DNA of 64,000 nt from Christensenella sp. UBA7588 (lineage in GTDB: Bacteria; Bacillota; Clostridia; Christensenellales; CAG-917): NCBI GenBank assembly GCA_002478945.1, contig DLKM01000025.1, positions 46,557 to 110,556 of the forward strand, written 5' to 3'. The notes under the pieces are model-generated. The model made no database searches and was not told the DNA's origin. It was given only the letters and a program-made list of their open reading frames with translations. The position numbers and the translations under genes were made by a program. Below, one piece after another: positions 11,027 to 57,774 of the stretch (positions within the stretch are counted from its first letter, which is position 1; every line of letters starts with the position of its first letter).

Positions 11027-13426
11027 TTATCTGATTTTCGCTCCGACTTTGCGTTTGAGTACGGAGAGAATTTTTGCCATTTCGGTTGCGATTTCTTCGT
11101 CCGTAAGCGTGCGCTCGAGAGATGAGAACGCAAAGCTCATAGCAACGCTCTTTTTGCCTTGTCCGATTTGCTCGCTCTTGTATGTGTCGAAAACTTTTGC
11201 TTCCGTCAGATATTTGATTTTTGCACCGAGAACGGCGTCAGTCATATCTCCCGCAAGCACGTCGTCGTCAACTACGACAGCGAGGTCTCTTTCGATAATC
11301 GGGAATTTGGAGAATTCGCGGAATTTGCTCTTTTCAAGTGCGTTTCCGTCAAAAATGTCGTCTATTGAAATCTCCGCAACGTACAGTCTGAAATTGTCGA
11401 CGCCGTAGTTGTCCGCTACGTCGGGATGTATCTCTCCGACAAATCCTACGTTTTTGCCGTTTACCATAATCTCCGCGCCTCTGCCAGTATGCAGATACGG
11501 TCTCGTCGAACGTTCGTATTTCTCGTCGATATGCAACGCTTTGAACATTTGCTCCAACGCGCCTTTAACGGTAAAGAAATCAACGCCCTCTCCGTACATA
11601 CCGATGCAAAGTCTGCTTTGCTCGTAAGGCAATTCCTTGAGCGGAAGTTCCTTGGGCAAATAAACGTTTGCGACCTCGAAAAGGCTTGCGCTCTTATTGA
11701 AGTGCGTGACGTTGTAGCACAAAGTTTCAATCATACTGTGAGTGAGAGTCGTGCGCATTACACTCAACGCTTCTCCGAGCGGATTTACGAGCTTGATTGC
11801 GTTGCGAGCGTTATCGTCTGCGGCAAGATTGAGTTGCGACGCAAACTTCGGAGAGGTAAACGAATAAGTTACGCTCTCGGACAATCCGCACGCGCTGAGA
11901 GTGTTCTTGATGACGTTGATAAACTTCATCTTATCGGATATTCCGCCCTTCGTCAGCGTAGCGTATTCAAACAAAGTGGGTTTGATGTGGCTATAGCCGT
12001 ACACTCTGATAAATTCCTCTGCGATGTCGTTGACTCCGACTATATCGTCTCTGTCCTCTTTCACTCTTGCGACGAGGCATTTATCCCCTTCGACCACTTC
12101 GATTCCCAATCTTTCGAGTATGGGAATCAATGCGGCTTTCGGCACTTTACAGCCCAAAATCTCTTGAAGTTTTTTGGTCGTGAACTTAATTTCGCGCACT
12201 TTTTGGTAATCGACCTTTACGTCGATAATGCCCTCGACGATGTCGCCTGCACCCATTTGGTATACGAGCGTCAACGCGCGTTTCAAGCCGTATTCCTGCG
12301 ATGCGAAATCGATGCCTTTTTCAAATCTTGCGGAACTGTCCGAACGCAGATTGAGTGCGCGAGACGTGCGTCTCACGTTGTCGCGAGCAAATTTTGCGGA
12401 TTCAAAAACTACTTCCGTGGTATCGGGTTGAATACCGCTGTTTTCTCCGCCCATAATGCCTGCCACCGCCACGGGTTTGTATGCGTCGCAGATGACCAAC
12501 ATACTATCGTTGAGTTTATTTTTCTTACCGTCGAGAGTCTCGATTGTTTCGCCGTTTTGCGCGTTGCGCACGACGATTTTGTCGCCTTCGAGTTCTCTCT
12601 TGTCAAAAGAGTGCATCGGCTGTCCGATTTCGGTAAGAACGTAGTTGGTAATATCAACGATATTATTTATTGGACGAATGCCCACCGCGCGCAATCTCGA
12701 TTTGATTTTTTGCGAGGACGGGAAAATTTTGATATTCTTCACGCCTGCCGCCATATATCTGGGGCAAAGTTCTTGATTTTGCACTTCTACGCTGACCATA
12801 TCGGAAACTTTTGCTCCGCAGTCGCAAACTTTATAGTCGATTTCAGGTTCTCTGCAAGAGGTCTTGAGCGCAACGGCAACTTCTTTTGCCATTTTGTAAA
12901 CGCTGTTGCAGTCGGGACGATTCGCAGTCACGCCTATATCGAGAATAACGTCGTCGTAGCCGAGTGCCTTGAGAGCGTTTTGACCGAGTTCCGTACCTTC
13001 TTCGAATCTGATAATATCTCCGAGTTTTTGATTTTGGACGTCGTCCTCCGTAACGCCGACTTCTTCGAGTCCGCAAAGCATACCTTCGCTCACGACTCCC
13101 CTCAATTCGCCTTTTTTGATGACGTGTCCGTCCGCAAGTTTCGCGCCGTCGAGAGCGACTGCGATTGTCTCGCCGCCTTCTACGGGAACGTTGGTAACGA
13201 CTTGAATCGTATTTGCGCCGACGTCTATTTGAGTAACGCGCAAACGGTCTGCATTCGGATGTTTGTCGACTTTGACGATTTTACCGACGACGACGTTCGT
13301 CGCTTTGTTTTCCTGATATGTGATTTCTTCCACCTCAAAGCCGATTGCAACGAGTTTTTTTGCAAGAACTTCGGGTTTGACGTTAATATCGACGTAATCT
13401 TTGAGCCAAGAAATAGGAACTAACAT
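11027..13426 (-). CDS. pheT: Phenylalanine--tRNA ligase beta subunit
   Basis: MLVPISWLKDYV start, 799 aa, tRNA-binding/B3-4/B5 layout, immediately downstream of pheS. Confidence 0.95.
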   Translation of the reverse strand: MLVPISWLKDYVDINVKPEVLAKKLVAIGFEVEEITYQENKATNVVVGKIVKVDKHPNADRLRVTQIDVGANTIQVVTNVPVEGGETIAVALDGAKLADGHVIKKGELRGVVSEGMLCGLEEVGVTEDDVQNQKLGDIIRFEEGTELGQNALKALGYDDVILDIGVTANRPDCNSVYKMAKEVAVALKTSCREPEIDYKVCDCGAKVSDMVSVEVQNQELCPRYMAAGVKNIKIFPSSQKIKSRLRAVGIRPINNIVDITNYVLTEIGQPMHSFDKRELEGDKIVVRNAQNGETIETLDGKKNKLNDSMLVICDAYKPVAVAGIMGGENSGIQPDTTEVVFESAKFARDNVRRTSRALNLRSDSSARFEKGIDFASQEYGLKRALTLVYQMGAGDIVEGIIDVKVDYQKVREIKFTTKKLQEILGCKVPKAALIPILERLGIEVVEGDKCLVARVKEDRDDIVGVNDIAEEFIRVYGYSHIKPTLFEYATLTKGGISDKMKFINVIKNTLSACGLSESVTYSFTSPKFASQLNLAADDNARNAIKLVNPLGEALSVMRTTLTHSMIETLCYNVTHFNKSASLFEVANVYLPKELPLKELPYEQSRLCIGMYGEGVDFFTVKGALEQMFKALHIDEKYERSTRPYLHTGRGAEIMVNGKNVGFVGEIHPDVADNYGVDNFRLYVAEISIDDIFDGNALEKSKFREFSKFPIIERDLAVVVDDDVLAGDMTDAVLGAKIKYLTEAKVFDTYKSEQIGQGKKSVAMSFAFSSLERTLTDEEIATEMAKILSVLKRKVGAKIR

Positions 13427-16127: not shown

Positions 16128-16140
16128 TTCTTTTTTCATA

Positions 16141-16461
16141 GCGAGATTAGTCTGTAAGCCGAGTTCTGTGTTTGACGGTCATCTATCTAGGACGTACATT
16201 TCTGCACGCCTCAAGCGATGTCGGGAACTTGCGGGCCACATTTTATGTTCCCTATCTTGCATCGAGTGGGGTTTACATCGCGCATTGTCGCCAAATTGCG
16301 GGTGAGCTTTTACCTCGCCTTTCCATCCTTACCGAAAAATCGGCGGTTTTTTTCTGTTGCACTATCCTTGAAGTCGCCTTCACCGGGAGTTACCCGGCAC
16401 CCGTGCCCTGTGATGCTCGGACTTTCCTCAAATATTTCATGCGACCGTCCGGCTAACTCGC
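16141..16461 (-). ncRNA. rnpB: RNase P RNA (type-A-like bacterial architecture)
   Basis: The minus strand contains GAGGAAAGUCCGAGC (CR-I), GGGUAACUCCCGG, AGUGCAACAGAAA, GGUAAG...GAAAGG, CCUAGAUAGAUGAC and ACAGAACUCGGCUUACAG (CR-V), collinear with E. coli M1 RNA. The 5' GCGAGUUAG pairs with the 3' CUAAUCUCGC (P1). Confidence 0.9.
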
Positions 16462-22290: not shown

Positions 22291-22884
22291 TTTTATTGCT
22301 TTGGATGGTGGTAACAATTTGGGTAAACCTTGCGCCATAGGTTCGGTAGGATTTCCCTGCATCGAAACTCGTCGTCACCGTCCGAGAAGTTTCCTATTAC
22401 TCGACGCATCGTCTTAAAGAAGAAACCGAATCGCCACTTAGAGCACACTATAATCCCCAGATTGCCTCATTAGAACAGTCTAGAAGATTTCCTTGACAGA
22501 TTCCGCCCGCCCTTATCTTTTTTTGCAGCGTACATTTCATCGGGCAATCACCGTCGCGTATTGGCCATACGAAAGGGCGTGGTTCCCTAATCCCTGTACG
22601 TCACTCAAAGCAGGCTACGCTGTACACAGCATTTTCACACCGCATATCAGGTTTCACCCCAGTCAGTAGACAGTTTTTACATTGCCCACCGAGTTGGGTC
22701 TCCACGGAAAATGGTACGGGGTTTGCATGCCGTTGCAAGCCGCCCAAAATCCTTAACTCCCAGCAACAGCCCCAATTTGGGCAAAAGAAGCCGTCACCAG
22801 AAACTTCATCGATATGCCCTTCGGCGATATTTTACCCCCGCCTCCGAGTCGGTGGAATCTGACTAGAATACTGCACCACCATTT
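22291..22884 (-). ncRNA. ole: Large structured noncoding RNA, most likely OLE (ornate, large, extremophilic) RNA
   Basis: About 590 nt with no ORF of 60 aa or more on either strand. Appears more GC-rich than its flanks (by eye). Own promoter at the 5' end. 5' AUGGUGGU pairs with 3' ACCACCAU. Lies directly upstream of a 4-TM protein and tlyA-nadK-argR-recN. Confidence 0.7.
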
Positions 22885-22890
22885 AATTAT

Positions 22891-22918
22891 ATTATACACT
22901 ATTCGTTAAAAATGTCAA
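22891..22918 (-). promoter_or_regulatory. Near-consensus sigma-A promoter driving the large ncRNA (and probably oapA)
   Basis: Minus strand TTGACA (22918-22913), 16-nt spacer, TATAAT (22896-22891), ~35 nt downstream of the recG stop. Confidence 0.65.
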
Positions 22919-42426: not shown

Positions 42427-42661
42427 ACCTACAGGATACTCCGATGAATGAGACAAATTCGTCTCTATCGCAATCACTATACCACATATTGTGCAAATTA
42501 TCAATTTTTTGCGGCTTAAAAGCACAAATTTGATAGCAAAAAAGTTGTCAACATTATTGATTTAGTTAACTAAGTGTGTTATCATATACATAAATTGGAT
42601 TATAGAGGAGTTTTTTTGTTGCAAAAAATTCTTCTGTTTCCGCGCGGAGGAATTTATTTTT

Positions 42662-44557
42662 ATGGTAAATTTTGATGAAATCGAATTTTTGGAAAGCGAA
42701 ATCGTAGAGGACGACCCGCAAGCCCCCGTAGGCACACTCGTACATATTCTCGAGGACGGAACCGTTGAAGTCGTCGACACGCAAAAAGAGCAAAACGCAG
42801 ACGTGGCAACGCCCGTTCAAGACGTTGCGGACGCTCACACCGACGAACAATCGGAGCAAGTCGCAAACGACGACGAAAAAGTCGACGAAAGCGTTGTAGA
42901 GCAACCTGTCGACGAAGAAATCAACGAAAGCGTTGTCGAACAACCCGCCGACGAAGAAGTTGCGCAAGAAACCGTCAAAGACGAAGTCGTTGAGGACGTC
43001 GCAGACGTTCAAGAAAACGTGTCCGAGGTCGAACCCGTCGAAGAAAACGCAGACGAACCTCAAGAGGACGTGACAGCTGTCGAAGAAAGCGTCGTCGAAG
43101 AAGAAAATGCTCCGCAGGTTGAAGAAAGCGTTCAAGATACCGAAAACACCGAAAACGCGCAATCTTACATAGAAGAAACGACCGTCGACGTCGAGGATTA
43201 CGCGGAAGAAAACGAAGAAGCAGTCTCCCCCGTCGAAAACGCAGAACCGACGGTTGAAGAACCTGCCGACGAGCAACCAGTCGAAGACGTTGAAGAAACG
43301 GTCTCGGAAACTCCCGTAGAAACCGAAGAAAGCGCAGTCGCGGACGAAAGCGTTGTCGAAGAAGAAAACTCCGTCGAAACCGCTCCTGCCGACGAACCCG
43401 TCGTAGCGGTAAACGACGAAGAACAACCTCAAGTCGAGCAAGAAGCCGCCATCGAAAATACCGAATCCGTTGAAGTCGCTTCCGAACCCGAAACGGCGGT
43501 TACAACCGAAGTCGTAGCCGAAGAAAAAGCGGAAAAAGTTGTCGCACCCAAGAAACCGAGAAAGAAAGCGGTTAAGAAAGAGGAAAGCGCAGTTGCTCCC
43601 GTCGCGCAAAAAGTCGAAAACAAAACGCCAATCAATCTCAAAAACGGTCGCAACGTGAACGAAGCGTTGTTCGATACGAGTTTTGAAATCGAGCAACCCG
43701 CAAAAGCAAAAGTCGTTTCCACCAAGAAAAAACAAGAAAAGGCAGAAGATTTGTGGGCAGTCGCTACGGTTACCGCAAAACCGACAAAGACTACCTCTAA
43801 AGCAAAGGCGGAAAAATCCGAAAATGCGGAAGTTGTCGCCAAGACGACGGAGAAAAAGTCCGCTCCCAAAAAGTCAACAAAAGTTGAGAATACATCAAAG
43901 AATTCTACGGAGGAAAAGAAAGTGGCAAAAACCGAGGCAAAAACGACAAAGACCGACGTTAAGGAAACAAAGACGGACGTAAAAGAGACAAAGACCGAAG
44001 CAAAGAACACCAAAGCGGCAAAAGCACCCGTCAAAGAAGAAAAAGCACCCAAGGCTAAAGCAGTCGAAAAAGAAGAAGTCGCACCCGCAAAAGAAACGAA
44101 AGCGACCAAAACTGCCGCAAAGACCGACAGCGACGAAACCGTTATCGTCGAAGGCGAAGGCAAAACTCACGGCAAATACGTCATCAAGAAAACGGATAAG
44201 GGCAATTTCGTATTCAAACTTTATTCGTCCAACTACAGAGTCGTGGCAATCGGCGCACAAGCATACACCACTCTCGGCGCGGCAAAAATCGGCATTCAAA
44301 GCATCATAAACAACGCCGAAAAAGCACCCGTAGAAAATCAAACGCTCAAGAATTACGAAACGCTCAAGTTCCCCAAATGGGAAATCTATCTTGACAAGAA
44401 AGGCGAATATCGTCTCCGCTTGTACGCAACCAACGGCAGCCTTATCGCAACGACCAACGACGGTTACACCGACATCAGCGGCGCAAAGAACGGCATCGCG
44501 GCAGTCGGCAGAGCAAGCAAAGGTTGCGCAATCGTAAGAAACGACAATCTCTGGTAA
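42662..44557 (+). CDS. Large low-complexity protein: ~340-aa acidic E/V/D-rich region, ~150-aa Lys-rich region, two C-terminal DUF1508 (YegP-like) repeats
   Basis: GGAGG RBS. Compositional blocks are visible in the translation. The C-terminal GKYVIKKTDKGNFVFKLYSSNYRVVA...Y.TLGAAK.GI and EIYLDKKGEYRLRLYATNGSLIA...GY.DISGAKNGI match the DUF1508 pattern as recalled. Confidence 0.6.
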   Translation: MVNFDEIEFLESEIVEDDPQAPVGTLVHILEDGTVEVVDTQKEQNADVATPVQDVADAHTDEQSEQVANDDEKVDESVVEQPVDEEINESVVEQPADEEVAQETVKDEVVEDVADVQENVSEVEPVEENADEPQEDVTAVEESVVEEENAPQVEESVQDTENTENAQSYIEETTVDVEDYAEENEEAVSPVENAEPTVEEPADEQPVEDVEETVSETPVETEESAVADESVVEEENSVETAPADEPVVAVNDEEQPQVEQEAAIENTESVEVASEPETAVTTEVVAEEKAEKVVAPKKPRKKAVKKEESAVAPVAQKVENKTPINLKNGRNVNEALFDTSFEIEQPAKAKVVSTKKKQEKAEDLWAVATVTAKPTKTTSKAKAEKSENAEVVAKTTEKKSAPKKSTKVENTSKNSTEEKKVAKTEAKTTKTDVKETKTDVKETKTEAKNTKAAKAPVKEEKAPKAKAVEKEEVAPAKETKATKTAAKTDSDETVIVEGEGKTHGKYVIKKTDKGNFVFKLYSSNYRVVAIGAQAYTTLGAAKIGIQSIINNAEKAPVENQTLKNYETLKFPKWEIYLDKKGEYRLRLYATNGSLIATTNDGYTDISGAKNGIAAVGRASKGCAIVRNDNLW

Positions 44558-48335: not shown

Positions 48336-48428
48336 GGAGAAGTCGCCTAGTTTGGTCGAGGGCGCGCGACTGGAAATCGCGTAACCGTCAAAAGCGGTTC
48401 AAGAGTTCGAATCTCTTCTTCTCCGCCA
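48336..48428 (+). tRNA. tRNA-Ser (anticodon GGA), class II with long variable arm, encoded CCA
   Basis: Acceptor GGAGAAG/CTTCTCC, anticodon stem CGCGA/TCGCG with loop CTGGAAA, variable arm AACCGTCAAAAGCGGTT, T-arm AGAGTTCGAATCTCT, 3' GCCA. Confidence 0.9.
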
Positions 48429-48501
48429 AGCGGTAATAATCCGAACCCTCGAATATTCGTCCGTAAGGACTATTTCGGAGTTTGGTGCCGTTACCAAAGA
48501 A

Positions 48502-48546: not shown

Positions 48547-49533
48547 TTATATTGTTTCTGCCGCCACAGCGACCTCAGGAGCGACAATAACCTCGTCCTC
48601 TATTACTTGTTCAGACTGAGGTTCTGGCGTCGTAGAGGCGTATTCTATAAGCTGCTGCATAAGGTCTTTCTGGTCTTGCATATAGTTGACCGTATCGACA
48701 GTTATATTTTCGTAACCCATACGATACCCCATAAAGCCGTTGAGTATTACGGGCAGTAGTTTCAGGCAGCACGCCGCAAACGTTGCCCACGTCGGATATT
48801 TTATAACGTCGAGCACAATTACACCAGTAAGTAGCGACGTGATTGTTGTCCGAATAAACTTTGCGACGTAATGCACGCTACGTTTCGTTTCAGGTTTTAT
48901 TCCGAGCGGAGACCGATGTCCGTTCCCACGCCCACGCTTAAAAATCATTTCAGGCGTCAGGTTTACGGGCTTTGTCTGATTCGCCCTGATTATCGCCTTT
49001 ATCTGAGCTTTCGACAGGCTTTCGTCTGTTTGCAGCAACTTTTTGTCTTTGCCGACGTATTTGTCGATGTATTTTTCATACGAGATACCCACCTCGCTGA
49101 GAATATTCGTCCGAGTTTCCTTGAGTTCTCTGTCTATGTAATAACGGCAAAATTCGGTAAGCCTCGACTGATATTTTCTTTCGATTATCTGAGCCTTAAG
49201 TCCCTCGTATTCGTTTTTACAGTCCTGATACGTGTCACTTACCCTGCCAGCTTTCAAACCACTGTCAGAGCAGTTGACATACATACTGTATGAACAGAAA
49301 AGCAAGATAAAGAACGTAAGCCCGAGTTGAGCCCAGAACTCTACCGACGTTATCTTTATTTCCGTCGTAAAAACAACGATTACGACGAAAATAAGAAAGA
49401 ACCCGACAAAGATACCAGTATTATTGAGAATACTCCGTGTGAGCCGCTTTTTAGCCGCTCCGCCTTTTTCTATCGCCGTTCCGAGACTTCTCGACGGCGT
49501 TCTTTCATAATCGTCTTTTTTGATAGTTTGCAT
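48547..49533 (-). CDS. Prophage-encoded membrane protein, function unknown
   Basis: 328 aa with two N-proximal and further C-terminal TM helices. Last gene of the block. Confidence 0.45.
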   Translation of the reverse strand: MQTIKKDDYERTPSRSLGTAIEKGGAAKKRLTRSILNNTGIFVGFFLIFVVIVVFTTEIKITSVEFWAQLGLTFFILLFCSYSMYVNCSDSGLKAGRVSDTYQDCKNEYEGLKAQIIERKYQSRLTEFCRYYIDRELKETRTNILSEVGISYEKYIDKYVGKDKKLLQTDESLSKAQIKAIIRANQTKPVNLTPEMIFKRGRGNGHRSPLGIKPETKRSVHYVAKFIRTTITSLLTGVIVLDVIKYPTWATFAACCLKLLPVILNGFMGYRMGYENITVDTVNYMQDQKDLMQQLIEYASTTPEPQSEQVIEDEVIVAPEVAVAAETI

Positions 49534-49536
49534 ACG

Positions 49537-49935
49537 TTACACCTCATTGCCGTCGTCCGACGTTTCTTTCTTTTCGTCTGGCTTTTTTTCGACGGCGTCG
49601 CCTGCTTTATAAACAAACGAGCCGCCCCAGTTTGCCACCGCACCTATTATAAATATCATTACCATTTGGTCTATAATGTTTCTTAAACATATAGCCATTA
49701 TGGCAAGAACTGTAAACAGCACGGGAATCGACGGAGATTTAAGCCAGTTTTTTATCTGGTTAAAGAACGGAATTACGGAGAGAAACGCAAACACCAAGAA
49801 AAGACCTGAAACCGTCGCTGCGGAGCTTTTTTCAACCCAGATAGGAAACTGAGAAAGCGTTGCACCGAGCGGAGCCGCCACATCGATACCGATAGCGACG
49901 GCTTTTAAGATTTTGCCTTTCGTGGCATTTTTCAT
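49537..49935 (-). CDS. Small 4-TM protein (holin-like by size and topology only)
   Basis: 132 aa, four hydrophobic helices, charged C-terminal tail. Confidence 0.35.
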   Translation of the reverse strand: MKNATKGKILKAVAIGIDVAAPLGATLSQFPIWVEKSSAATVSGLFLVFAFLSVIPFFNQIKNWLKSPSIPVLFTVLAIMAICLRNIIDQMVMIFIIGAVANWGGSFVYKAGDAVEKKPDEKKETSDDGNEV

Positions 49936-49938
49936 AGC

Positions 49939-50805
49939 TTATCCCTCCGTTTTGTTTTCCTCTACGGCAGGTGTTGCGTTTGCCGATTCAAGCAACGCCG
50001 ACGCCTGTTCTACCGATTCTTTCAATGCAGGCACGTCCCCGAGCTTTTTGAGAGAGTCTGCATACGTCAGATTTACAAGGTCTTTTACTCCCTGAGGCAA
50101 GTTCTTCGAGTTTGCATACACGGTAATAAGTATTTTGAGAATTGCCTGCGTCTGGACGATAACCGCACCGACCGCCTCATAGTTCTGCGTCTCGTTTTTC
50201 TTGTATGCCGCAAATTCGGTTTCGATTTTGTTGTAACCCTCGATAAGATTGTTTACAACGTCAACAACGTCAGACTGGGCATTAGACGTAAACTTGACAT
50301 CACGGGAAAGCCCGAGCATATTCTTCTTGCTTTTAATAAAGTTTACAAGAAATACTATAAATAATACGATGTCGCCTACGGTGGTCGCAAGGGCAATATA
50401 GTTATTTTCGAGCCATTCCTGCACTCTTCCGAGAAAAGTATGATTTTCGGGCGGCGTAACGTCGCTTTCGACCACTTTAACAAGGTTAGAACCTTGTATA
50501 TAAAATCGCCCGAGTTCTTCGCCCATTGCGGACAGCGTAAGCACGCCGTCGAGGTATGTATAGGAGCCTTTATATTCGATTTCCTCCGAGCCGTGAACGG
50601 CGTGCAGTTTATATTCCGTTTCGGATAAAATCGTCGCCGAGTATTCGCCGCCGTCGTCGGAGAACGTATAAGTTTCGCCTATTACGAGCGGCGTCGCTGC
50701 CTCTTCTGCGTGGGCGACGTTTGCCGTAGTAAAACCGCAAAGCACGAACGAGAGAGACAAAGCCATAAAGCAGCACATAAGTGCAAAGATAAGTCTTTTT
50801 TTCAT
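49939..50805 (-). CDS. Secreted/membrane-anchored prophage protein
   Basis: Signal peptide MKKRLIFALMCCFMALSLSF...AHA, central TM helix, C-terminal helical domain. Confidence 0.45.
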   Translation of the reverse strand: MKKRLIFALMCCFMALSLSFVLCGFTTANVAHAEEAATPLVIGETYTFSDDGGEYSATILSETEYKLHAVHGSEEIEYKGSYTYLDGVLTLSAMGEELGRFYIQGSNLVKVVESDVTPPENHTFLGRVQEWLENNYIALATTVGDIVLFIVFLVNFIKSKKNMLGLSRDVKFTSNAQSDVVDVVNNLIEGYNKIETEFAAYKKNETQNYEAVGAVIVQTQAILKILITVYANSKNLPQGVKDLVNLTYADSLKKLGDVPALKESVEQASALLESANATPAVEENKTEG

Positions 50806-50820
50806 AGATAACCTCCAAAG

Positions 50821-51285
50821 TTATGTAATATCGTATCCCTCAAGCAGCTTTGCGATTTTTTCTTCAAGCTCCGAATATTTTTCAGCTACAGTTTGTAATT
50901 CCGTTTTTATCTTCTGCATATCGAGCTGTATTTCGGCTACGATTCTCGGTAAGTCGCCGTCATTCGGAGCAACGAGCACTCCAGAGCCAGCCACAGGCTC
51001 CGCCTTAAGCTCTTCGCAGACAAAAACAGGCGTTGACGTCTTGCCGTTCATAACGGTAACAGCTACGTTTATTTCGCCCTTTAAGAACTCCGCAGGCACG
51101 CTGCAAGTTTTATCCTGCAGTGTTCTGTAAATTGAGTCTCCCGTTGCATAACTCTCGAAAATAGCTACGGCGTCGTCGGGGGCGTCCGAAAAGGTAATAA
51201 TCAATTCGTCCGAAACGATTTCAGGCTGTCTCGTCAAGAGTATGCCTTTCTTGAAGTCTCTCAAAATTTTGTATTCCATTTTCAT
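50821..51285 (-). CDS. Hypothetical prophage protein (beta-rich N-terminus, coiled-coil C-terminus)
   Basis: 154-aa ORF immediately downstream of the DGR target. No family recognised. Confidence 0.4.
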   Translation of the reverse strand: MKMEYKILRDFKKGILLTRQPEIVSDELIITFSDAPDDAVAIFESYATGDSIYRTLQDKTCSVPAEFLKGEINVAVTVMNGKTSTPVFVCEELKAEPVAGSGVLVAPNDGDLPRIVAEIQLDMQKIKTELQTVAEKYSELEEKIAKLLEGYDIT

Positions 51286-51295
51286 ATCCGCTCCT

Positions 51296-53044
51296 TTATT
51301 CGACTTTGGCGTCGAGTACGCATTTTACGCCCCCGAGTTTGATGTCTCCCTCGGTATCGTTTCGCATAACCACGATTTTCAAAATAACTTTCCAGTAGGT
51401 TACGCCCTGCTGTTTTGCTCCGTTTGTGAATACGTGGTTTATATTCGCTTTGACAGCCGTTGTGATGTCGTCCCAGACTGGCTGCGTATCGTTACCGTTA
51501 TTACACGCAAGCACCTGTAAACCAGCCGCAAAGGGTTTTATGAGGTCGAGTTCGACGTTTATTGCTTTCGGCTGCACGGCAATATTTCCTGTCGGAGAGT
51601 ATTCGAGTTCGAGAACGCCTGCACTTTTGGTAAAGTGTTTCGTTTGCGTTACCGTCGCCGCCTCGTCCGAGGCAATGATTTTGATGTAATTGTCGCCTAC
51701 AGCGATAGCTCCCCACTGTGCCGACGTTATCTCAAACGTTTGCTGTTGCCCTGCTGCCGCCTGATACGTTCTGAGCAGTGTAGAGTTCAGATACTCCTTG
51801 ACGGTAATGTTTGCGTCGTCTCCGTCGTATATCGTGTAACTATACGAAAATCTCGTCGGTTTTTCTCCGAGGTTGCTTTCGTCACCCGATATAAACGGAG
51901 GAAAGTTATCCTGAACGACGTAAACGGGCGACGTCGCATAGTCCGATTCCTCTTCGGAGTTTACTGATTTGACCCTGTATTGCAAGCTTTGATACGAACT
52001 GAGCACGTTTTCGGTGTAACTTCTTGCCGTGCCGCTATATATCTGTGCAAACGCACCGTTGTTGACGCTGCGTTCCAAAACATAGCTCGTCGCATTGCCG
52101 ACCTCAGTCCACGTTATTTTTGCCGTGCCGCCCTCAATTCCGCCCGTTTCCTGCGTCGGTTGGCAGTATATCGGGTTTGATACCGAGATTTCAGGAGCCG
52201 ACAGACCCGTATCCAAGTTGAGAGTATAACAACCGTCCGAGTCGGTCGAATCGGAGACAGAGACTCCAGAGTCCAGATTGCAAAGCGGACGCACGCCGCG
52301 GCCACCGTAATACGCAAGGCCGTAGTACAAACTACCGTCCGAAGAGACACCGCGAACATCGTACGAGTCCGACGAGTCAGGAGTTCTGAGCCAGTAATAC
52401 CAGTTGGCACCTGCCGTAACCGCAGAAGAGCCTTTATTTGCGTTGTCTTGAGCGGCGTAAGCCGAAATTTGAGCAATTCTTATTGCGTTAGTGTTTGCAC
52501 TAAAATACGACAGGAGGCTGCCCTCCATAATACTGTTTTCCGCAGCTCCGAACAGTTCAGCTCTGGACGGTAAGAAAAATTTTCTTACAATAGACTCATA
52601 ACTACCGCCGTCGGTAACAGTGTTCAGGGCGACTTTTAACGTGGTATCCTTAAGAGCTGATACAAAAGCGTCGTCGAAACCAGCCAAAAAACCTGAGTCA
52701 GTATCATAAAGGTTTCTGGAAACGTATGATGTGCTATTCGGCGACTGGTCTGCGGAATGCCTTGCGGAATACCATTGACCTGCCGCAGCAGTAGAGTTGA
52801 GCCACTGGTCGAGGTTGGAAACGGAATATTTGTTGTTTCCGTAACTTTTACGATTGCTGTCGCTGTTATTCGGTTCTTTTGCGTCAAAGGCACGCAAGAG
52901 AATAATCTTCTCGGTTATGAGCGTCGTCGAGTTCTCGGGATAACCGTCGTGGTCTTTATCCGCCTTTAGAAAAATGATGTCTCCCAAAACGGAGTGCGAT
53001 ATTTTAATTTTTGAGCCTATCGCAAGGCTGCCGAGTGTTGCCAT
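51296..53044 (-). CDS. DGR target (variable) protein: N-terminal C-type-lectin-fold-like ligand-binding domain containing the VR, followed by FN3/Ig-like domains
   Basis: Contains the VR (aa ~221-255: PDSSDSYDVRGVSSDGSLYYGLAYYGGRGVRPL) inside a WYYWLRTP...GVRP motif typical of DGR variable domains. Downstream, AKITWTEVGNATSYVLERS...YRVKSVN resembles FN3. Confidence 0.85.
   Translation of the reverse strand: MATLGSLAIGSKIKISHSVLGDIIFLKADKDHDGYPENSTTLITEKIILLRAFDAKEPNNSDSNRKSYGNNKYSVSNLDQWLNSTAAAGQWYSARHSADQSPNSTSYVSRNLYDTDSGFLAGFDDAFVSALKDTTLKVALNTVTDGGSYESIVRKFFLPSRAELFGAAENSIMEGSLLSYFSANTNAIRIAQISAYAAQDNANKGSSAVTAGANWYYWLRTPDSSDSYDVRGVSSDGSLYYGLAYYGGRGVRPLCNLDSGVSVSDSTDSDGCYTLNLDTGLSAPEISVSNPIYCQPTQETGGIEGGTAKITWTEVGNATSYVLERSVNNGAFAQIYSGTARSYTENVLSSYQSLQYRVKSVNSEEESDYATSPVYVVQDNFPPFISGDESNLGEKPTRFSYSYTIYDGDDANITVKEYLNSTLLRTYQAAAGQQQTFEITSAQWGAIAVGDNYIKIIASDEAATVTQTKHFTKSAGVLELEYSPTGNIAVQPKAINVELDLIKPFAAGLQVLACNNGNDTQPVWDDITTAVKANINHVFTNGAKQQGVTYWKVILKIVVMRNDTEGDIKLGGVKCVLDAKVE
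52281..52383 (-). repeat. DGR variable region (VR)
   Basis: 103-nt match to 54254-54356 with 18 mismatches, every one opposite a TR adenine on the coding strand. Confidence 0.92.
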
Positions 53045-54098
53045 TTTTTGTTTTTTCCTCCTTTGGGAATAATTCGTTGTAGTAAGATTCTATTTCTTTC
53101 AGCAAGTGGTAGCAGTTGCCTCGGGACATATGCCCGACGGTGCTTTGCCACGAGCACTCTATACGCTCCATAGGCAATTTGCCTTGCTCGTTCAGCCGTT
53201 TCATTTTGCGGAACTTTCGGCGTATTTTGTGCTTTTTATCGCTCCTGAGTTTCATAATAACCTTACCTGTGTCTGTCAGGTAGGTGTGGAACCCGAGGAA
53301 GTCAATTCCGTTACGCAAAGGAAAGATATTCGTCTTTTCGTTAAGCTCAAGCCCTAAATCTTTTACGAAAGCCCGTATTTTCACGAGGCAATCTTGCAGC
53401 ACGGCTTTGTCTTTATGAACAAGATAAAAATCGTCCATATATCTGCCATACATCTTGATTCCGAGCTTTTCCTTTACGTAATGGTCTAACCCGTTCAGGT
53501 AAAGCAAAGCGAAAAGTTGCGAGCTCTGATTTCCTATCGGTATTCCAACCTTTCCCTCCGTGCTGTCGATTATCATATCACATAGCCAGAGAGTATCTGG
53601 GCAGGATATAAACCGTCTCAATTTCTTTTTGAGAATCTCGTGGTCTATGTTGTAAAAATACTTTCTGACATCGCACTTGAGCACCCAGCCCTCGGCTGTG
53701 CCGTTCTGGCGATAATACCGCAACAAAAAGCATTTCAAACGTTGTAGTCCAAAGTCCGTGCCTTTGCCGACCTGCGAGGCGTAATTGTCGGTTATAAACG
53801 ATTTCGTTAAAATCGGTTCTAATACGTTGTCGCAGAGCGAGTGTTGGACGACTTTGTCTTTATAACTGTTACTCATAACAAGCCGTTCCTTTGGTTCGTA
53901 GACCTTGAAAACGTTATACGGAGACAGCGTGTAGGTCTTCGTAATAAGCTGTCTCTTTAGCAGTAGCAACGCCTCAAGTAAATTTATCTCGAATTTGACG
54001 GCGGCGTCTTTCCAACGCTTGCCTCTACGAGCCTTGAGATACGCAGCATAGAGATTCTCTAAATCGTAAATCTTTTCGTATTCCTGCATAGATTTCAA
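53004..54098 (-). CDS. DGR reverse transcriptase
   Basis: RT motifs including GIPIGNQSSQLFA (the DGR-type [ILV]GxxxSQ) and YGRYMDDF (YxDD). 364 aa. Cognate TR immediately upstream. Confidence 0.92.
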   Translation of the reverse strand: MKSMQEYEKIYDLENLYAAYLKARRGKRWKDAAVKFEINLLEALLLLKRQLITKTYTLSPYNVFKVYEPKERLVMSNSYKDKVVQHSLCDNVLEPILTKSFITDNYASQVGKGTDFGLQRLKCFLLRYYRQNGTAEGWVLKCDVRKYFYNIDHEILKKKLRRFISCPDTLWLCDMIIDSTEGKVGIPIGNQSSQLFALLYLNGLDHYVKEKLGIKMYGRYMDDFYLVHKDKAVLQDCLVKIRAFVKDLGLELNEKTNIFPLRNGIDFLGFHTYLTDTGKVIMKLRSDKKHKIRRKFRKMKRLNEQGKLPMERIECSWQSTVGHMSRGNCYHLLKEIESYYNELFPKEEKTKNGNTRQPCDRLKN

Positions 54099-54253
54099 AA
54101 ATTCCTTATCGCATATAGCTATTGCCTTTTCTTATGAAAATGCCGTTGCGTCGATAATCTTGTATTTATCCTTTCGGAAAGGATATGCTCTCCTTTGATT
54201 GGTGGAGTGCTGCTTTCGCCCAAATATGGCTACTCGGTCTGACTTTATACCAC

Positions 54254-54356
54254 CAAAGCGGACGCACGCCGTTGTTACCGTTATACGCATTGTTGTTGTT
54301 CAAACTACCGTCCGAATTGACATTGCGAACATTGTACGAGTTCGACGAGTTAGGAG
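54254..54356 (-). repeat. DGR template repeat (TR)
   Basis: Noncoding copy of the VR. The coding-strand reading has 12 AAC/AAT codons (PNSSNSYNVRNVNSDGSLNNNNAYNGNNGVRPL). Lies between avd and the RT. Confidence 0.92.
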
Positions 54357-54387
54357 GGGCAGAGCATACCCTAAGAGATGTACTTAA

Positions 54388-54804
54388 TCAACCGTTATGA
54401 CTGCTGTTCCGCTTGTCGCTATTCCTCCAAGCGGCAGTCATACGTTTGACTTCTACGACAAGCCCACTCCAGTATGCTACCGATTTCATTTCGAGTTCGA
54501 TAGTCTTAAGTTTGTAGGCTAACTCTATCATTGTGTTAAGCAATTTGCACGACACTATCGCCTCTTTCTGGCACTCATATCTGGAGCGTCTTTCGGCGGC
54601 GTCGTTAATGTCGCACTCGTTTGCTCGGACAAGGTTTTCATAGATGTCGATAGAGATATTTTCTATTCTGGCACCTATCGAAAACCTATATTTCTTAGGA
54701 AAATGGTTTGTGTTTGCTGTCATTTTGCAGCTGTGTTCCATAAGGTCTTTCGCTTTTGTAATGACAGCCATTTCCTTAGGGTTACGTTCGTTTACTTTTA
54801 ACAA
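54388..54804 (-). CDS. avd: DGR accessory variability determinant (Avd, four-helix-bundle protein)
   Basis: 138 aa, basic, helical. FPKKYRFSIGARIENISIDIYENLVRAN resembles the Avd / 23S-IVS four-helix-bundle family. Directly upstream of the TR. Confidence 0.8.
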   Translation of the reverse strand: MLKVNERNPKEMAVITKAKDLMEHSCKMTANTNHFPKKYRFSIGARIENISIDIYENLVRANECDINDAAERRSRYECQKEAIVSCKLLNTMIELAYKLKTIELEMKSVAYWSGLVVEVKRMTAAWRNSDKRNSSHNG

Positions 54805-55032: not shown

Positions 55033-57774
55033 CTATTCAAGTTCCCACCAAACATTATGAAACACGTAACTACTTGCATATCCTGGCTTAAAAGCTGTAG
55101 TGCTGTTAAAATTTGTAATTTTGCCGTTAGCAAAAACCCTACAATACTGAGCTCCTAAAGAACTCCCAGGCTCCAATAAAATAATTTGCGTGGTATCTTT
55201 TGGTCTGAAACCCTCAGGTATCGTTATTGCTATGGTGTAACTTCCGTTTTGGCTTTTACTCATTTCAAAGTTGAAAATGCACCACTTGCCCATTTTTTGC
55301 AGGGAGTTCGTAGAAATGGTGCAGTTTGTTTGAGTAATTCCTGCGGCTCCCGACTTAAAACCCAAATTTGTTAGCCTCGTTTCTATTGTCCCTTTTGATG
55401 TGTCGTCGCTTGCGTAAAGTGCCTTTGTTGCAACGGGAGCTGTCGCTCCGCTTGCAAAATCACTTGTTTCGACCGAAGATTTTGTAGCGAGACTTCCTAA
55501 GCCAGATATTTTAGATGACGATATTGCTGCGTTGCTCGCAATATCAGAGTTTGTAATACTACTTTTTGCCGCCAAACTACCTAAACCGCTTATTTTACTT
55601 TTGTCGATAGCAGCGTCGGAGGCAACGTCAGTGTTGCTTATAGTGCTTTTTGCCGCCAGCGAACCGAGTCCCGAGATTTTACTTTTGTCGATAGCAGCAC
55701 TTGACGATACGTCCGAGTTGGTTATAGAGGATTTAAACGCCAAAGTGCCGAGAGCGGCAAACCACTGTTTGATTTTGCCGAAAAGACTCTTTGTTGTATC
55801 TCCCGAGCTTATATTCGAGCGTGTCCCCGTTGCGTCGGAAAACGTAACCTTTGTGTCTCCGATTTCGCCGCCTGAGGCTGTAACTTTCTTACCAAGTTCA
55901 GTGTATACGCCTCCAGATTTTACAGGTTTGCTACTGCCTGCCGTCGGCGTATCGTCCCACGAAAGCGTATCTTGTTTTTTGTTAAGTTTTGAGTCCATTT
56001 CCGACTCGGTGTAATACCTATCGTCGTGAGAGTGAGACGCAGGAGCAACACCGCTGAGCTTAGCGTATTCGATTGCAGCAGCCGAATCGACGTCGGCATT
56101 TTTGATTTTATCCTTAAAAGCAAGAGCCTTAAGACGTCCGAGCCAGTTTTTTATTTTTCCGAACAGAACTTTAAGCGTATTTCCGCTCGCCAGATTAGCC
56201 GCCGTGCCCGATATATCGGGAAACGTCGTAACAGTCTCGGCTACTTCGCCGCCGTTTTTATCGACTTTTGCGGCAAGAGCCTCCTCGAGCCCGTTTACTT
56301 TTTCCATTTCAATGGAAACGATGTTCGTTGTATTTGTCGTGTAATACGCTTTACCGACACGGACAATAAGTTTACCCTCGAATTTTTCGTCAGTGTAACA
56401 AACTACCGTTCCGCCTGCGGATACCGTAAACAAGTTACAAGACGAGAAATTACCGTCGGCGTCTTTACGCCTGAGGTCGATATAAAGCGACATATCGGAG
56501 CCCATACCGTGCGTAGCAGGCGGCACCGTTATGTAATACAGCCCGTTGGAGTCGGCACTTTCAGACCACGAGCTTGAAAGAATATTCAAAACATAGCTCG
56601 GAATATCCGTAATTGCAGGCGACATATAAATGCTTGCCAGATACCAGCCGTCAAGTTCGTCCCCTATAACGGCAGACGACCAGTAATGATAAGTATAAAT
56701 TTTGCCTGCGTCGGGCATTTGATTATCCCATACCTGAACAGAGTCCGTATTGTCGGGAGTGTCTCTTCCCGTGCTTTCTTTAACTTTTTTATTGAGTTCG
56801 GCAATAAGTGTAGCGTCGAGGGTTTCTGGCGTAGCCCAAAGAACAACGCCACGGATAATACGAGGTTTTACGCCGAGCTGCAGGCTGTCTACGTCCTGAT
56901 TAAGCGACTGAATCGCCAAAGCAATATCTGCTCCGATTGGAGTGATTTTAGATATATCGCCGATATTGCCCTCAACGGTCGTTGCACGACTTTCAAGGCT
57001 GTCAAGTCTTCCGTCTGAAATGTTTTTATCGGTCTGATATGTCGATTTATCGACTTTTAGAGCCAAGAAATTATCCGTCTGTGTTTTAGTGTAGCGGTCG
57101 TTGATTTTTTCAAGCAGACCACTGCTTATATCGCCCTGCAGAGCGTCGGCAATAGCGTCGGCATACTCTTTAAGCGTCTTGCTTGTTGCCGTCGCCTTGT
57201 TCGATGTCGCAAAGCCGTAACACTGCAGTGTTATTTTAGCCGCCAGAGTGCCGTTGGCGATGTCGGAGACGAGGTTGCTTAACTTCTTTCCTGCCCCGTT
57301 GTAACTGTCCGAAATACCCACCTCTGCGGCTCCTGAGGACGATTTTATAAGTGTCTTGTAATTATTAAACGCCTCAGTAAGTTCCGAAATAAGACGTGCC
57401 TTTTCGTTGATTATCGCCTGTAACGTTGCAAGGTTCTTTTCGTCGCCCATATCTGCGGCAGAATGATACGCAAGCATAATCGTAGCAAAACCGCCGTTAA
57501 GAAACGACGCCGTAAGGTCTCCGAGGGAGGCTATTGTTCCGCCCAGATTGTCGATACCGACATACTCCTGCCCCGATTCGCTCAAGGCGGTCTGAATCTC
57601 ATTGATTTTACCTGCCAAGAGTCTGCCGAGATTATCAAACCACAGCTTAAGCTGCGTGGGCGATAGACCACCCACACCGTAACTGGCTGCAACGTTAGGC
57701 TTATCCGCAAGAGCTACGACACCTTTTGCCGCAAGCTCTGCGTTAGAAATGTTTGCAAATTGTTTTTTTGCCAT
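55033..57774 (-). CDS. Phage tail fibre / receptor-binding-like protein
   Basis: 913 aa, coiled-coil-rich N-terminal half, duplicated LFGKIK.W...LAFK modules, 28-aa tandem repeats, distinct C-terminal globular domain. Assigned from position in the structural module. Confidence 0.55.
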   Translation of the reverse strand: MAKKQFANISNAELAAKGVVALADKPNVAASYGVGGLSPTQLKLWFDNLGRLLAGKINEIQTALSESGQEYVGIDNLGGTIASLGDLTASFLNGGFATIMLAYHSAADMGDEKNLATLQAIINEKARLISELTEAFNNYKTLIKSSSGAAEVGISDSYNGAGKKLSNLVSDIANGTLAAKITLQCYGFATSNKATATSKTLKEYADAIADALQGDISSGLLEKINDRYTKTQTDNFLALKVDKSTYQTDKNISDGRLDSLESRATTVEGNIGDISKITPIGADIALAIQSLNQDVDSLQLGVKPRIIRGVVLWATPETLDATLIAELNKKVKESTGRDTPDNTDSVQVWDNQMPDAGKIYTYHYWSSAVIGDELDGWYLASIYMSPAITDIPSYVLNILSSSWSESADSNGLYYITVPPATHGMGSDMSLYIDLRRKDADGNFSSCNLFTVSAGGTVVCYTDEKFEGKLIVRVGKAYYTTNTTNIVSIEMEKVNGLEEALAAKVDKNGGEVAETVTTFPDISGTAANLASGNTLKVLFGKIKNWLGRLKALAFKDKIKNADVDSAAAIEYAKLSGVAPASHSHDDRYYTESEMDSKLNKKQDTLSWDDTPTAGSSKPVKSGGVYTELGKKVTASGGEIGDTKVTFSDATGTRSNISSGDTTKSLFGKIKQWFAALGTLAFKSSITNSDVSSSAAIDKSKISGLGSLAAKSTISNTDVASDAAIDKSKISGLGSLAAKSSITNSDIASNAAISSSKISGLGSLATKSSVETSDFASGATAPVATKALYASDDTSKGTIETRLTNLGFKSGAAGITQTNCTISTNSLQKMGKWCIFNFEMSKSQNGSYTIAITIPEGFRPKDTTQIILLEPGSSLGAQYCRVFANGKITNFNSTTAFKPGYASSYVFHNVWWELE
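55426..55761 (-). repeat. Four tandem 84-nt (28-aa) repeats within the tail-fibre gene
   Basis: Unit [IF]SGLGSLAAKS.I.N.D..S.AAI..SK at aa 672-783. An exact 23-nt repeat (attttacttttgtcgatagcagc) starts at 55592 and 55676, an 84-nt period. Confidence 0.8.

Follow-up and report, generated by a model that had tools for sequence, protein, structure and literature searches.

A diversity-generating retroelement with a predicted tentaclin target in an uncharacterized Clostridia prophage

We analyzed a 64,000-nucleotide (nt) stretch of DNA from Christensenella sp. UBA7588 (GenBank assembly GCA_002478945.1, contig DLKM01000025.1, positions 46,557 to 110,556 of the forward strand), which we refer to as the window and in which all positions below are counted. 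The first ~48.4 kb of the window is bacterial chromosome; the remainder is part of a prophage, which continues past the right end and carries a diversity-generating retroelement (DGR). In minus-strand order, the cassette comprises an open reading frame (ORF) for an Avd-like protein, a 31-nt gap with an 11-nt conserved element, a template repeat (TR), a 155-nt spacer, a reverse transcriptase (RT) gene, and a target gene that contains the variable repeat (VR). Our analysis makes it highly probable that this is a functional DGR, carried by a temperate phage of ~45 kb at a tRNA-Ser of an uncultured gut Clostridia bacterium, and that it diversifies a tentaclin. A complete DGR had been proposed at this site in an earlier note made from the sequence, and that proposal was supported: there is an adenine-specific TR/VR pair, an RT whose best relative of solved structure is that of the Bordetella phage DGR, and a probable Avd-family gene immediately 5' of the TR.

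RESULTS

The template and variable repeats differ only at adenines

The TR (54254-54356, minus strand, 103 nt) and the VR (52281-52383, minus strand) align without a gap, and all 18 mismatches between them fall at TR adenines (A>G, 10; A>T, 5; A>C, 3), with none at C, G, or T. The TR contains 28 A, 26 C, 26 T, and 23 G residues, and the hypergeometric probability that 18 random mismatches over 103 positions would all land on the 28 A's is 2.4e-13. This pattern had been described before; both repeats, when re-extracted, were exact to the base, and a recount of the alignment found zero non-adenine mismatches. The similarity between TR and VR ends abruptly at both sides, and the 3'-terminal 17 nt (GGCGTGCGTCCGCTTTG) are A-free and the same in both copies.

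The TR is non-coding, and the VR lies in frame within the 582-amino-acid (aa) target ORF (53044-51296), where it encodes aa 221 to 255. We also reproduced the previous in-frame reading of the 12 AAC/AAT codons of the TR, which correspond in the VR to residues D, D, D, G, S, Y, Y, G, L, Y, G, and R; the remaining four TR adenines are in TAC, GAC, AGT, and TAT codons. The theoretical repertoire of this arrangement is 4^28 DNA variants and ~3.3e16 protein variants (15^12 x 4^4), with no stop codons among them. We looked for a second VR on both strands of the window, with a tolerance of <=4 non-A mismatches per 40 nt, and within ~10 kb of the cassette in close relatives, and found none.

Variable repeats diverge at adenine-templated sites among relatives

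A megablast search with the cassette against 50,697 GenBank phages gave no match, so relatives were found by protein-guided scans, and 53 related RT loci were collected. In at least 27 IMG/VR cassettes, the TR, the RT, and a downstream VR are arranged and spaced as they are here, and adenines dominate the mismatches. For a comparison at close range, we used three viral contigs (L001, L003, and L004) and one metagenome-assembled genome (MAG; L007). L001, L004, and L007 are 92 to 96% identical to the window at the nucleotide level and have an identical TR, and L003, whose locus excludes the TR, is 99% identical. The VR is different in each of the four relatives, with 16 to 20 pairwise differences, all but at most one of which are at TR-A positions, so that the VR varies at A-templated sites among near-identical genomes in which the TR is constant.

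The same sites stand out at the protein level. Across 28 homologues of the target (85 to 96% identity), column entropy is 2.4 to 3.0 bits at exactly the 12 residues templated by AAY codons and reaches at most 1.55 bits elsewhere in the protein, with weaker variation at the TAC, GAC, AGT, and TAT codons. Because relatives with an identical TR differ in their VRs and the hypervariability sits on the 12 AAY codons, these comparisons indicate that the DGR has been active repeatedly in this lineage. The finding that near-identical phages share a TR and differ in the VR at A-templated positions upholds the claim of the earlier note that mutagenic retrohoming has acted here, and the VR heterogeneity confined to A-templated sites that the note had proposed as a check was in large part seen at the between-sample level, both across the relatives and across the 28 homologues. 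That near-identical genomes have different VRs with an unchanged TR implies a VR turnover faster than ordinary divergence.

Covariation supports an RNA scaffold around the template repeat

Base pairs around the TR were counted on 16 distinct aligned TR-flank sequences. An 11-bp long-range duplex is formed by GGGTATGCTCT (54371-54361, minus strand), which ends 4 nt before the TR, and AGAGCATATCC (54191-54181) in the spacer; it is 100% paired in the 16 sequences and has compensatory changes at 7 of the 11 pairs. A second, 7-bp duplex is formed by TTGGTGG (54256-54250), which consists of the last 3 nt of the TR and 4 nt of the spacer, and CCACCAA (54205-54199), with 86.6% of cells paired and one covarying pair, G-C to A-U (8 versus 8 sequences). 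Cryo-electron microscopy of the DGR of Bordetella phage BPP-1 has revealed a template:primer duplex with an 11-bp avd:Sp "stop" duplex next to it, as well as a tetraloop hairpin and A-minor adenosines (bioRxiv 10.1101/2023.10.23.563531). As a control, we re-read these elements from the BPP-1 sequence, and the layout agrees; the 11-bp and 7-bp pairings here match the stop and template:primer duplexes and are predicted to have these roles, and we use the two names for them below.

Read 5' to 3' on the minus strand, the 155-nt spacer (54099-54253) contains, in the cassette alignment, a conserved CGAGUA (54231-54236), a variable hairpin (54218-54230) that is present in all lineages and covaries on both sides, GAAAGCAG (54210-54217), the CCACCAA strand of the template:primer duplex with a candidate priming A at 54200 or 54199, a CAAAGG linker (54192-54197; CAAAGG in 15 of the 16 sequences, with CAAAG invariant), the 3' strand of the stop duplex, a UCC-GAAA-GGA stem-loop (54169-54178), and, following it, the A-rich UAAAUACA (54161-54168). 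The whole model, which includes a closing helix of 2 bp, has 26 pairs, with 95.5% of cells paired and double changes at 15 pairs. When the model was slid, only 42 to 49% of cells were paired, and none of 500 shuffles reached the observed value. In this way, the predicted elements for cis-primed reverse transcription, namely, a stop duplex, a TR-3':spacer duplex, and a stem-loop with adenosines after it, were found by covariation. The structure is seen through covariation alone; the whole Avd-3'/TR/spacer RNA folds no better than shuffled sequences (z = -0.03). A template:primer register that pairs TR CTTTG with spacer CAAAG was dropped as the main model, as synonymous TR changes in other lineages break this pairing without compensation.

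In lineages with TRs of 103, 105, and 125 nt, TR-VR homology starts 3 to 4 nt after the stop duplex, and it ends 2 to 3 nt past the edge of the predicted priming duplex, within that duplex. Because the homology begins just after one duplex and ends just inside the other, the repeat corresponds closely to the predicted cDNA. We also observed that CAAAGG, CGAGUA, and GAAAGCAG are near-invariant, though the RTs of these cassettes are just 48 to 83% identical, a degree of conservation that the base-paired model leaves unexplained. These motifs could be contact sites for Avd or RT, or they could hold the priming nucleotide.

Reverse transcriptase and Avd-like genes

The RT gene (53004-54098, minus strand) is an ORF of 364 aa whose likely start is the ATG at 54089, with AAGGA 12 nt upstream. 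It adjoins the TR and contains both of the motifs named in the earlier note, IGNQSSQ and YMDD, which fit the DGR-clade forms of motif 4 ([I/V]GxxxSQ) and motif 5 (YxDD). The protein matches Pfam RVT_1 (E 1.5e-17) and PHROG 1423 (E 4.6e-133), and its best PDB match is BPP-1 bRT (8ub7; E 1.7e-38), with group II intron RTs at 2e-11. By these similarities, the RT belongs with the DGR clade. The stop of the RT gene and the start of the target gene overlap by 41 nt (53004-53044, minus strand), compared with 16 nt in the nd12 DGR described below, and this overlap suggests translational coupling of RT and target.

Avd, the accessory variability determinant, is a four-helix-bundle pentamer. Directly 5' of the TR is an ORF (54388-54804, minus strand) of 138 aa when counted from TTG 54804. 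A GGGAGGG ribosome-binding site precedes this codon by 8 nt, and the ATG at 54771 is an alternative start. The product matches PHROG 3206, "Avd protein of DGR" (E 6.2e-25), and is a probable, not a proven, Avd.

The target has the domain architecture of a tentaclin

The target gene (51296-53044, minus strand), which overlaps the 3' end of the RT gene, encodes a protein with a DUF6273 lectin-like domain at aa 38 to 259 (nt 52268-52933; Pfam E 8.5e-33), and the VR is at the C-terminal end of this domain. In the AlphaFold2 (AF2) model of the protein (predicted local distance difference test [pLDDT] score, 68.5), three confident Fn3/immunoglobulin (Ig)-like beta-sandwich domains follow aa ~285 and extend to aa 582 (pLDDT mostly 75 to 95), and two strands, 229 to 233 and 239 to 243, are placed inside the VR at low to moderate pLDDT. 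The top Foldseek matches of the model were tandem fibronectin type III (FnIII) arrays, and the DUF6273-bearing IgA peptidase 9qa6 was also matched. The protein matches PHROG 10993 over its full length (E 5e-132), is 33 to 35% identical at aa 305/355 to 572 to the C termini of the FP_Brigit and FP_Mushu proteins, and has >1,600 homologues in public metagenomes.

Tentaclins were founded on target1 of gut phages nd12 and nd4, in which an N-terminal C-type lectin (C-lec)-like domain with a hypervariable beta-hairpin is followed by Ig-like domains, and the C-terminal Ig domain of the family carries a seven-residue consensus (PMC10743442); DUF6273 DGR targets have been reported in other Faecalibacterium prophages (PMC11792537). 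The target analyzed here has an N-terminal DUF6273 domain with the VR as a predicted surface beta-hairpin, for which the C-lec fold is taken from PMC10743442, and this domain is followed by three Ig-like domains, where tentaclins have one to four. The VR is not at the extreme C terminus, as it would be in an Mtd-type target, but ends at aa 255 of 582 and is followed by 327 residues of Ig-like sequence. On the basis of this architecture, we classify the 582-aa target as a tentaclin.

Prophage and chromosomal setting

The left end of the prophage, at its junction with the chromosome, is the 3' end of a tRNA-Ser(GGA) (48336-48428, plus strand; ARAGORN and Rfam). In four viral contigs and one MAG, the homology to the window breaks off at 48394 to 48460, and viral contig L003 continues past the junction into the gene of a 573-aa large serine recombinase (L003 3944-5665). 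The core shared between L003 and the tRNA 3' end is CTCCGCCAAGCGG... / CTCCGCCAAGCGGTAATAATCC. GC content, at ~45 to 47% throughout, gave no boundary signal for the prophage, and its second end is beyond the window. From these junction data, we place the DGR in a prophage integrated at tRNA-Ser and not in a free phage genome. The phage genome is probably ~45 kb, as several homologue-bearing contigs are ~45 kb long. The nearest genome comes from a Hadza gut sample and is a MAG of an uncultured Clostridia bacterium, and the major capsid protein is at most 31% identical to anything in GenBank phages.

The DGR is at the distal end of the structural module, after genes for a major head protein, a virion protein of 891 aa, and a fiber-like protein of 913 aa. 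The last of these (55033-57774, minus strand) is directly upstream of the cassette and has tandem 28-aa repeats (...SKISGLGSLAAKS...) at 55592-55752, for which TRF reports a period of 84 and 1.9 copies; no Pfam family matches this protein, and its PHROG matches are all weak. Neither this ORF nor a 74-aa upstream ORF is similar to the nd12 gene upstream of avd. Four ORFs of 154, 288, 132, and 328 aa are found between the target gene and the attachment site (48547-51285, minus strand); they have no Pfam or PHROG match, and three have predicted membrane segments. No recognizable endolysin is present in this interval, where related phages such as nd12 carry one.

In the chromosomal part, we found a full-length OLE (Ornate Large Extremophilic) RNA at 22292-22895 (minus strand; Rfam, 407.7 bits, model positions 1 to 616). 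Its upstream neighbor is recG, and downstream are genes for a 286-aa membrane protein, an S4+FtsJ methyltransferase, an NAD kinase, and a recN-like protein. The 286-aa protein has a weak CNNM-TM match and is possibly OapA-like. Because of the OLE RNA and its gene neighbors, we consider the left part of the window to be a Firmicutes-type chromosome. A bacterial class A RNase P RNA at 16138-16460 (minus strand; 249.6 bits) is a further chromosomal marker. This part also contains two unusually long ORFs that are antisense to other long ORFs: one of 665 aa (11426-13423, plus strand, against 11027-13426, minus strand) and one of 631 aa (42662-44557, plus strand, against 42566-43735, minus strand).

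DISCUSSION

Proposed mechanism

In the mechanism that we propose for this DGR, a transcript of the Avd 3' end, TR, and spacer would fold so that two regions, the 11 nt just upstream of the TR and the 3' end of the TR itself, pair with the spacer. This folding step is supported by covariation, and the three later steps are ones that we infer by analogy. The RT and the Avd-like protein would prime cDNA synthesis in cis from a spacer adenosine (~54199/54200); the RT would then copy the 103-nt TR, misincorporate at its 28 adenines, and halt at the upstream duplex; and the cDNA would replace the VR in the gene directly downstream of the RT. The VR would encode a beta-hairpin surface at the end of the N-terminal lectin-like (DUF6273) domain; the C-terminal Ig-like domains would presumably anchor the tentaclin to the virion, and the variable face would presumably bind a changing ligand.

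Several observations weigh against this interpretation or parts of it. The evidence for activity comes from the comparison of relatives and is not direct for this prophage, and the priming adenosine at 54199/54200, the stop site, and the role of the CAAAGG linker are predictions. The Avd-like protein scores below the curated cutoffs of both NCBIfam DivGenRetAVD (36.8 bits; cutoff, 80) and Pfam bAvd (29.7 bits; cutoff, 40), its similarity to BPP-1 Avd is undetectable by hhalign (0.3% probability), and profile comparison with the PDB gave no match. A single-sequence AF2 model of this protein is helical, of low confidence (pLDDT 60), and does not resolve a bundle. Of the earlier description of an Avd-like four-helix-bundle gene, the match to an Avd-family profile stands, and the term "four-helix bundle" comes from profile matches alone.

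The remaining points concern target recognition. The earlier note had likened the A-free 3' end of the repeats to the GC-rich segment at the initiation of mutagenic homing (IMH) site of known DGRs. That these 17 nt are A-free and identical was confirmed, and the analogy is a loose one, as it comes without a separate IMH* and without a convincing hairpin after the VR. Beyond the 17-nt segment, we found no IMH* distinct from IMH; DNA folding 3' of the VR gave no significant hairpin or cruciform (z = 0.19); and across 11 lineages there is no conserved hairpin 3' of the VR, just inverted repeats of 4 to 5 bp at shifting positions. Because neither an IMH* nor a significant hairpin was found, the target-recognition rules of BPP-1 may not transfer to this DGR. 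The combination of a GC-rich IMH, a diverged IMH*, and a downstream hairpin is not universal among DGRs.

Alternative explanations

The earlier note had called the target a phage receptor-binding-type protein. Its membership in a phage tentaclin or "Hoc-like" family was supported, and receptor binding would be one of two roles, the other being Hoc-like decoration, that we regard as conjectures. In the second of these, the target would be a capsid decoration or adhesin and not a tail receptor-binding protein, and its lectin face would bind mucus glycans or gut or immune ligands. We consider this possible, though doubtful. It is in line with the tandem Ig/Fn3 architecture and with the label "Hoc-like head decoration" given to PHROG 10993 and to the Mushu and Brigit homologues, and the authors of the tentaclin work leave both options open (PMC10743442; PMC11792537). 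However, these labels are the only pointer to Hoc and are based just on Ig-domain architecture; there is no Pfam Hoc match in the target, T4 Hoc, a head outer capsid protein with Ig-like domains and a capsid-binding domain, is without a lectin domain and has a different anchoring domain (PMC10743442), and the target gene is at the distal end of the tail-fiber module, directly after the 913-aa fiber-like gene.

In a more far-reaching version of this idea, which we think unlikely, the target would not bind a host receptor at all but would be a virion-displayed Hoc-like adhesin whose lectin face, varied by the DGR, tracks changing gut ligands such as mucin glycans or host immune molecules; the DGR would then amount to an adaptive module, borne by the phage, for adherence to mucus or host. 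A second and smaller possibility is that this clade uses a target-recognition rule other than that of BPP-1, as TR-VR homology stops at the predicted priming duplex and we see neither an IMH* nor a hairpin.

DGRs are often under tight regulation, and this DGR could have been formerly active and now be silent in the prophage, with its VR differences inherited. The activity evidence is between genomes and not at the read level, no hairpin follows the VR, and template usage in BPP-1 is <2% in vitro (bioRxiv 10.1101/2023.10.23.563531), all of which would fit such a state. However, intact and conserved forms of the RT, the Avd, the TR, and every RNA element are present, and genomes that are 92 to 99% identical in their flanks have an unchanged TR and VRs that are all different, which makes present silence improbable in our view. 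The idea that the repeats are simply a duplication that has diverged, or a product of gene conversion, with no part played by reverse transcription, has nothing in its favor except that a repeat exists, and it is effectively refuted by mismatches exclusive to adenines (P = 2.4e-13), by a non-coding TR that is flanked by conserved RNA structure and adjoins a DGR-clade RT, and by the recurrence of the same pattern in dozens of related loci.

A functional DGR that diversifies a tentaclin thus remains our preferred reading, and we regard the locus as a textbook-quality natural DGR with comparative evidence of repeated activity, suited for use as a model locus.

Comparison with known DGR systems

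The closest parallels are the DGRs of nd12 and nd4 (Baykov et al. 2023, PMC10743442; OR777946, OR777945), which have the same order of Avd, TR, RT, and target. The RT analyzed here is 64% identical to that of nd12 and 45% identical to that of nd4, and the target is 42% identical to nd12 target1 and 40% identical to nd4 target1 over 96% of its length. Like the target here, target1 of nd12 and nd4 has a DUF6273 domain and three Ig-like domains, with the VR in the 5' half of the gene, and the spacer RNA is built on the same scaffold, in which CAAAGG and the stop duplex are both present. In contrast, the cassettes have no nucleotide-level similarity, and nd4 and nd12 each encode a further, small C-lec target that has a VR of its own, of which we found no counterpart in the window or in close relatives. 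The phage backbone is also different, with only distant matches to the major capsid protein (<=31%), as is integration at tRNA-Ser via a large serine recombinase.

The DGR of Faecalibacterium phage FP_Mushu (Cornuault 2018, PMC5883640; Borodovich 2024, PMC11792537) is likewise at the end of the tail module and has the order bAvd, TR, RT, and a 574-aa "Hoc-like" target. The C-terminal Ig-like part of that target is 34% identical to the target here, whereas the N-terminal domains are unalignable by BLAST, and the FP_Mushu protein has four Ig-like domains (PMC10743442) compared with three here. Its RNA shows an analogous upstream:spacer duplex, after which come a hairpin and an A-rich tail, but the middle part of its spacer is unlike the one here.

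A single solved structure, the N-terminal DUF6273 domain of the Thomasclavelia ramosa IgA protease (PDB 9qa6; PMC12402451), is similar in sequence to the variable domain (E 3.8e-13, aa 37 to 266). That domain is not diversified and is part of a cell-wall-anchored peptidase, in which it is dispensable for IgA cleavage (PMC12402451). As a functional lead to the target it failed, since the domain is dispensable for IgA recognition.

The prototype, BPP-1 (mtd-avd-TR-brt), shares adenine-specific mutagenesis, a clearly homologous RT (E 1.7e-38), and the logic of the RNA, in which an 11-bp upstream:spacer duplex and a TR-3':spacer duplex are followed by a short tetraloop hairpin and by adenosines. 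The two systems differ in that the BPP-1 target is upstream, with the VR at the extreme C terminus of trimeric Mtd, while here the target is downstream of the RT. In addition, TR-VR homology in BPP-1 continues for 17 nt beyond the priming site, IMH differs from IMH*, and a hairpin is present downstream, whereas here the homology ends 2 to 3 nt past the predicted duplex and no hairpin is seen; the linker between the two duplexes is 2 nt in BPP-1 and 7 nt here; and the BPP-1 Avd sequence is not detectably similar to the Avd-like protein.

The scaffold in which the TR is bracketed by a stop duplex and a template:primer duplex, with TR-VR homology boundaries that coincide with these duplexes, is independently supported here by covariation, which points to conservation of the BPP-1 cryo-electron microscopy scaffold in Firmicute phage DGRs. 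The DGR described here is of a kind already known from gut phages: it has a single target, is of the tentaclin type, and belongs to a Clostridia prophage whose backbone is undescribed. Current concepts are neither contradicted nor extended by it; the RNA scaffold is a useful confirmation, and the tentaclin-targeting DGRs, which are common in the human gut, gain an uncharacterized Clostridia prophage lineage.

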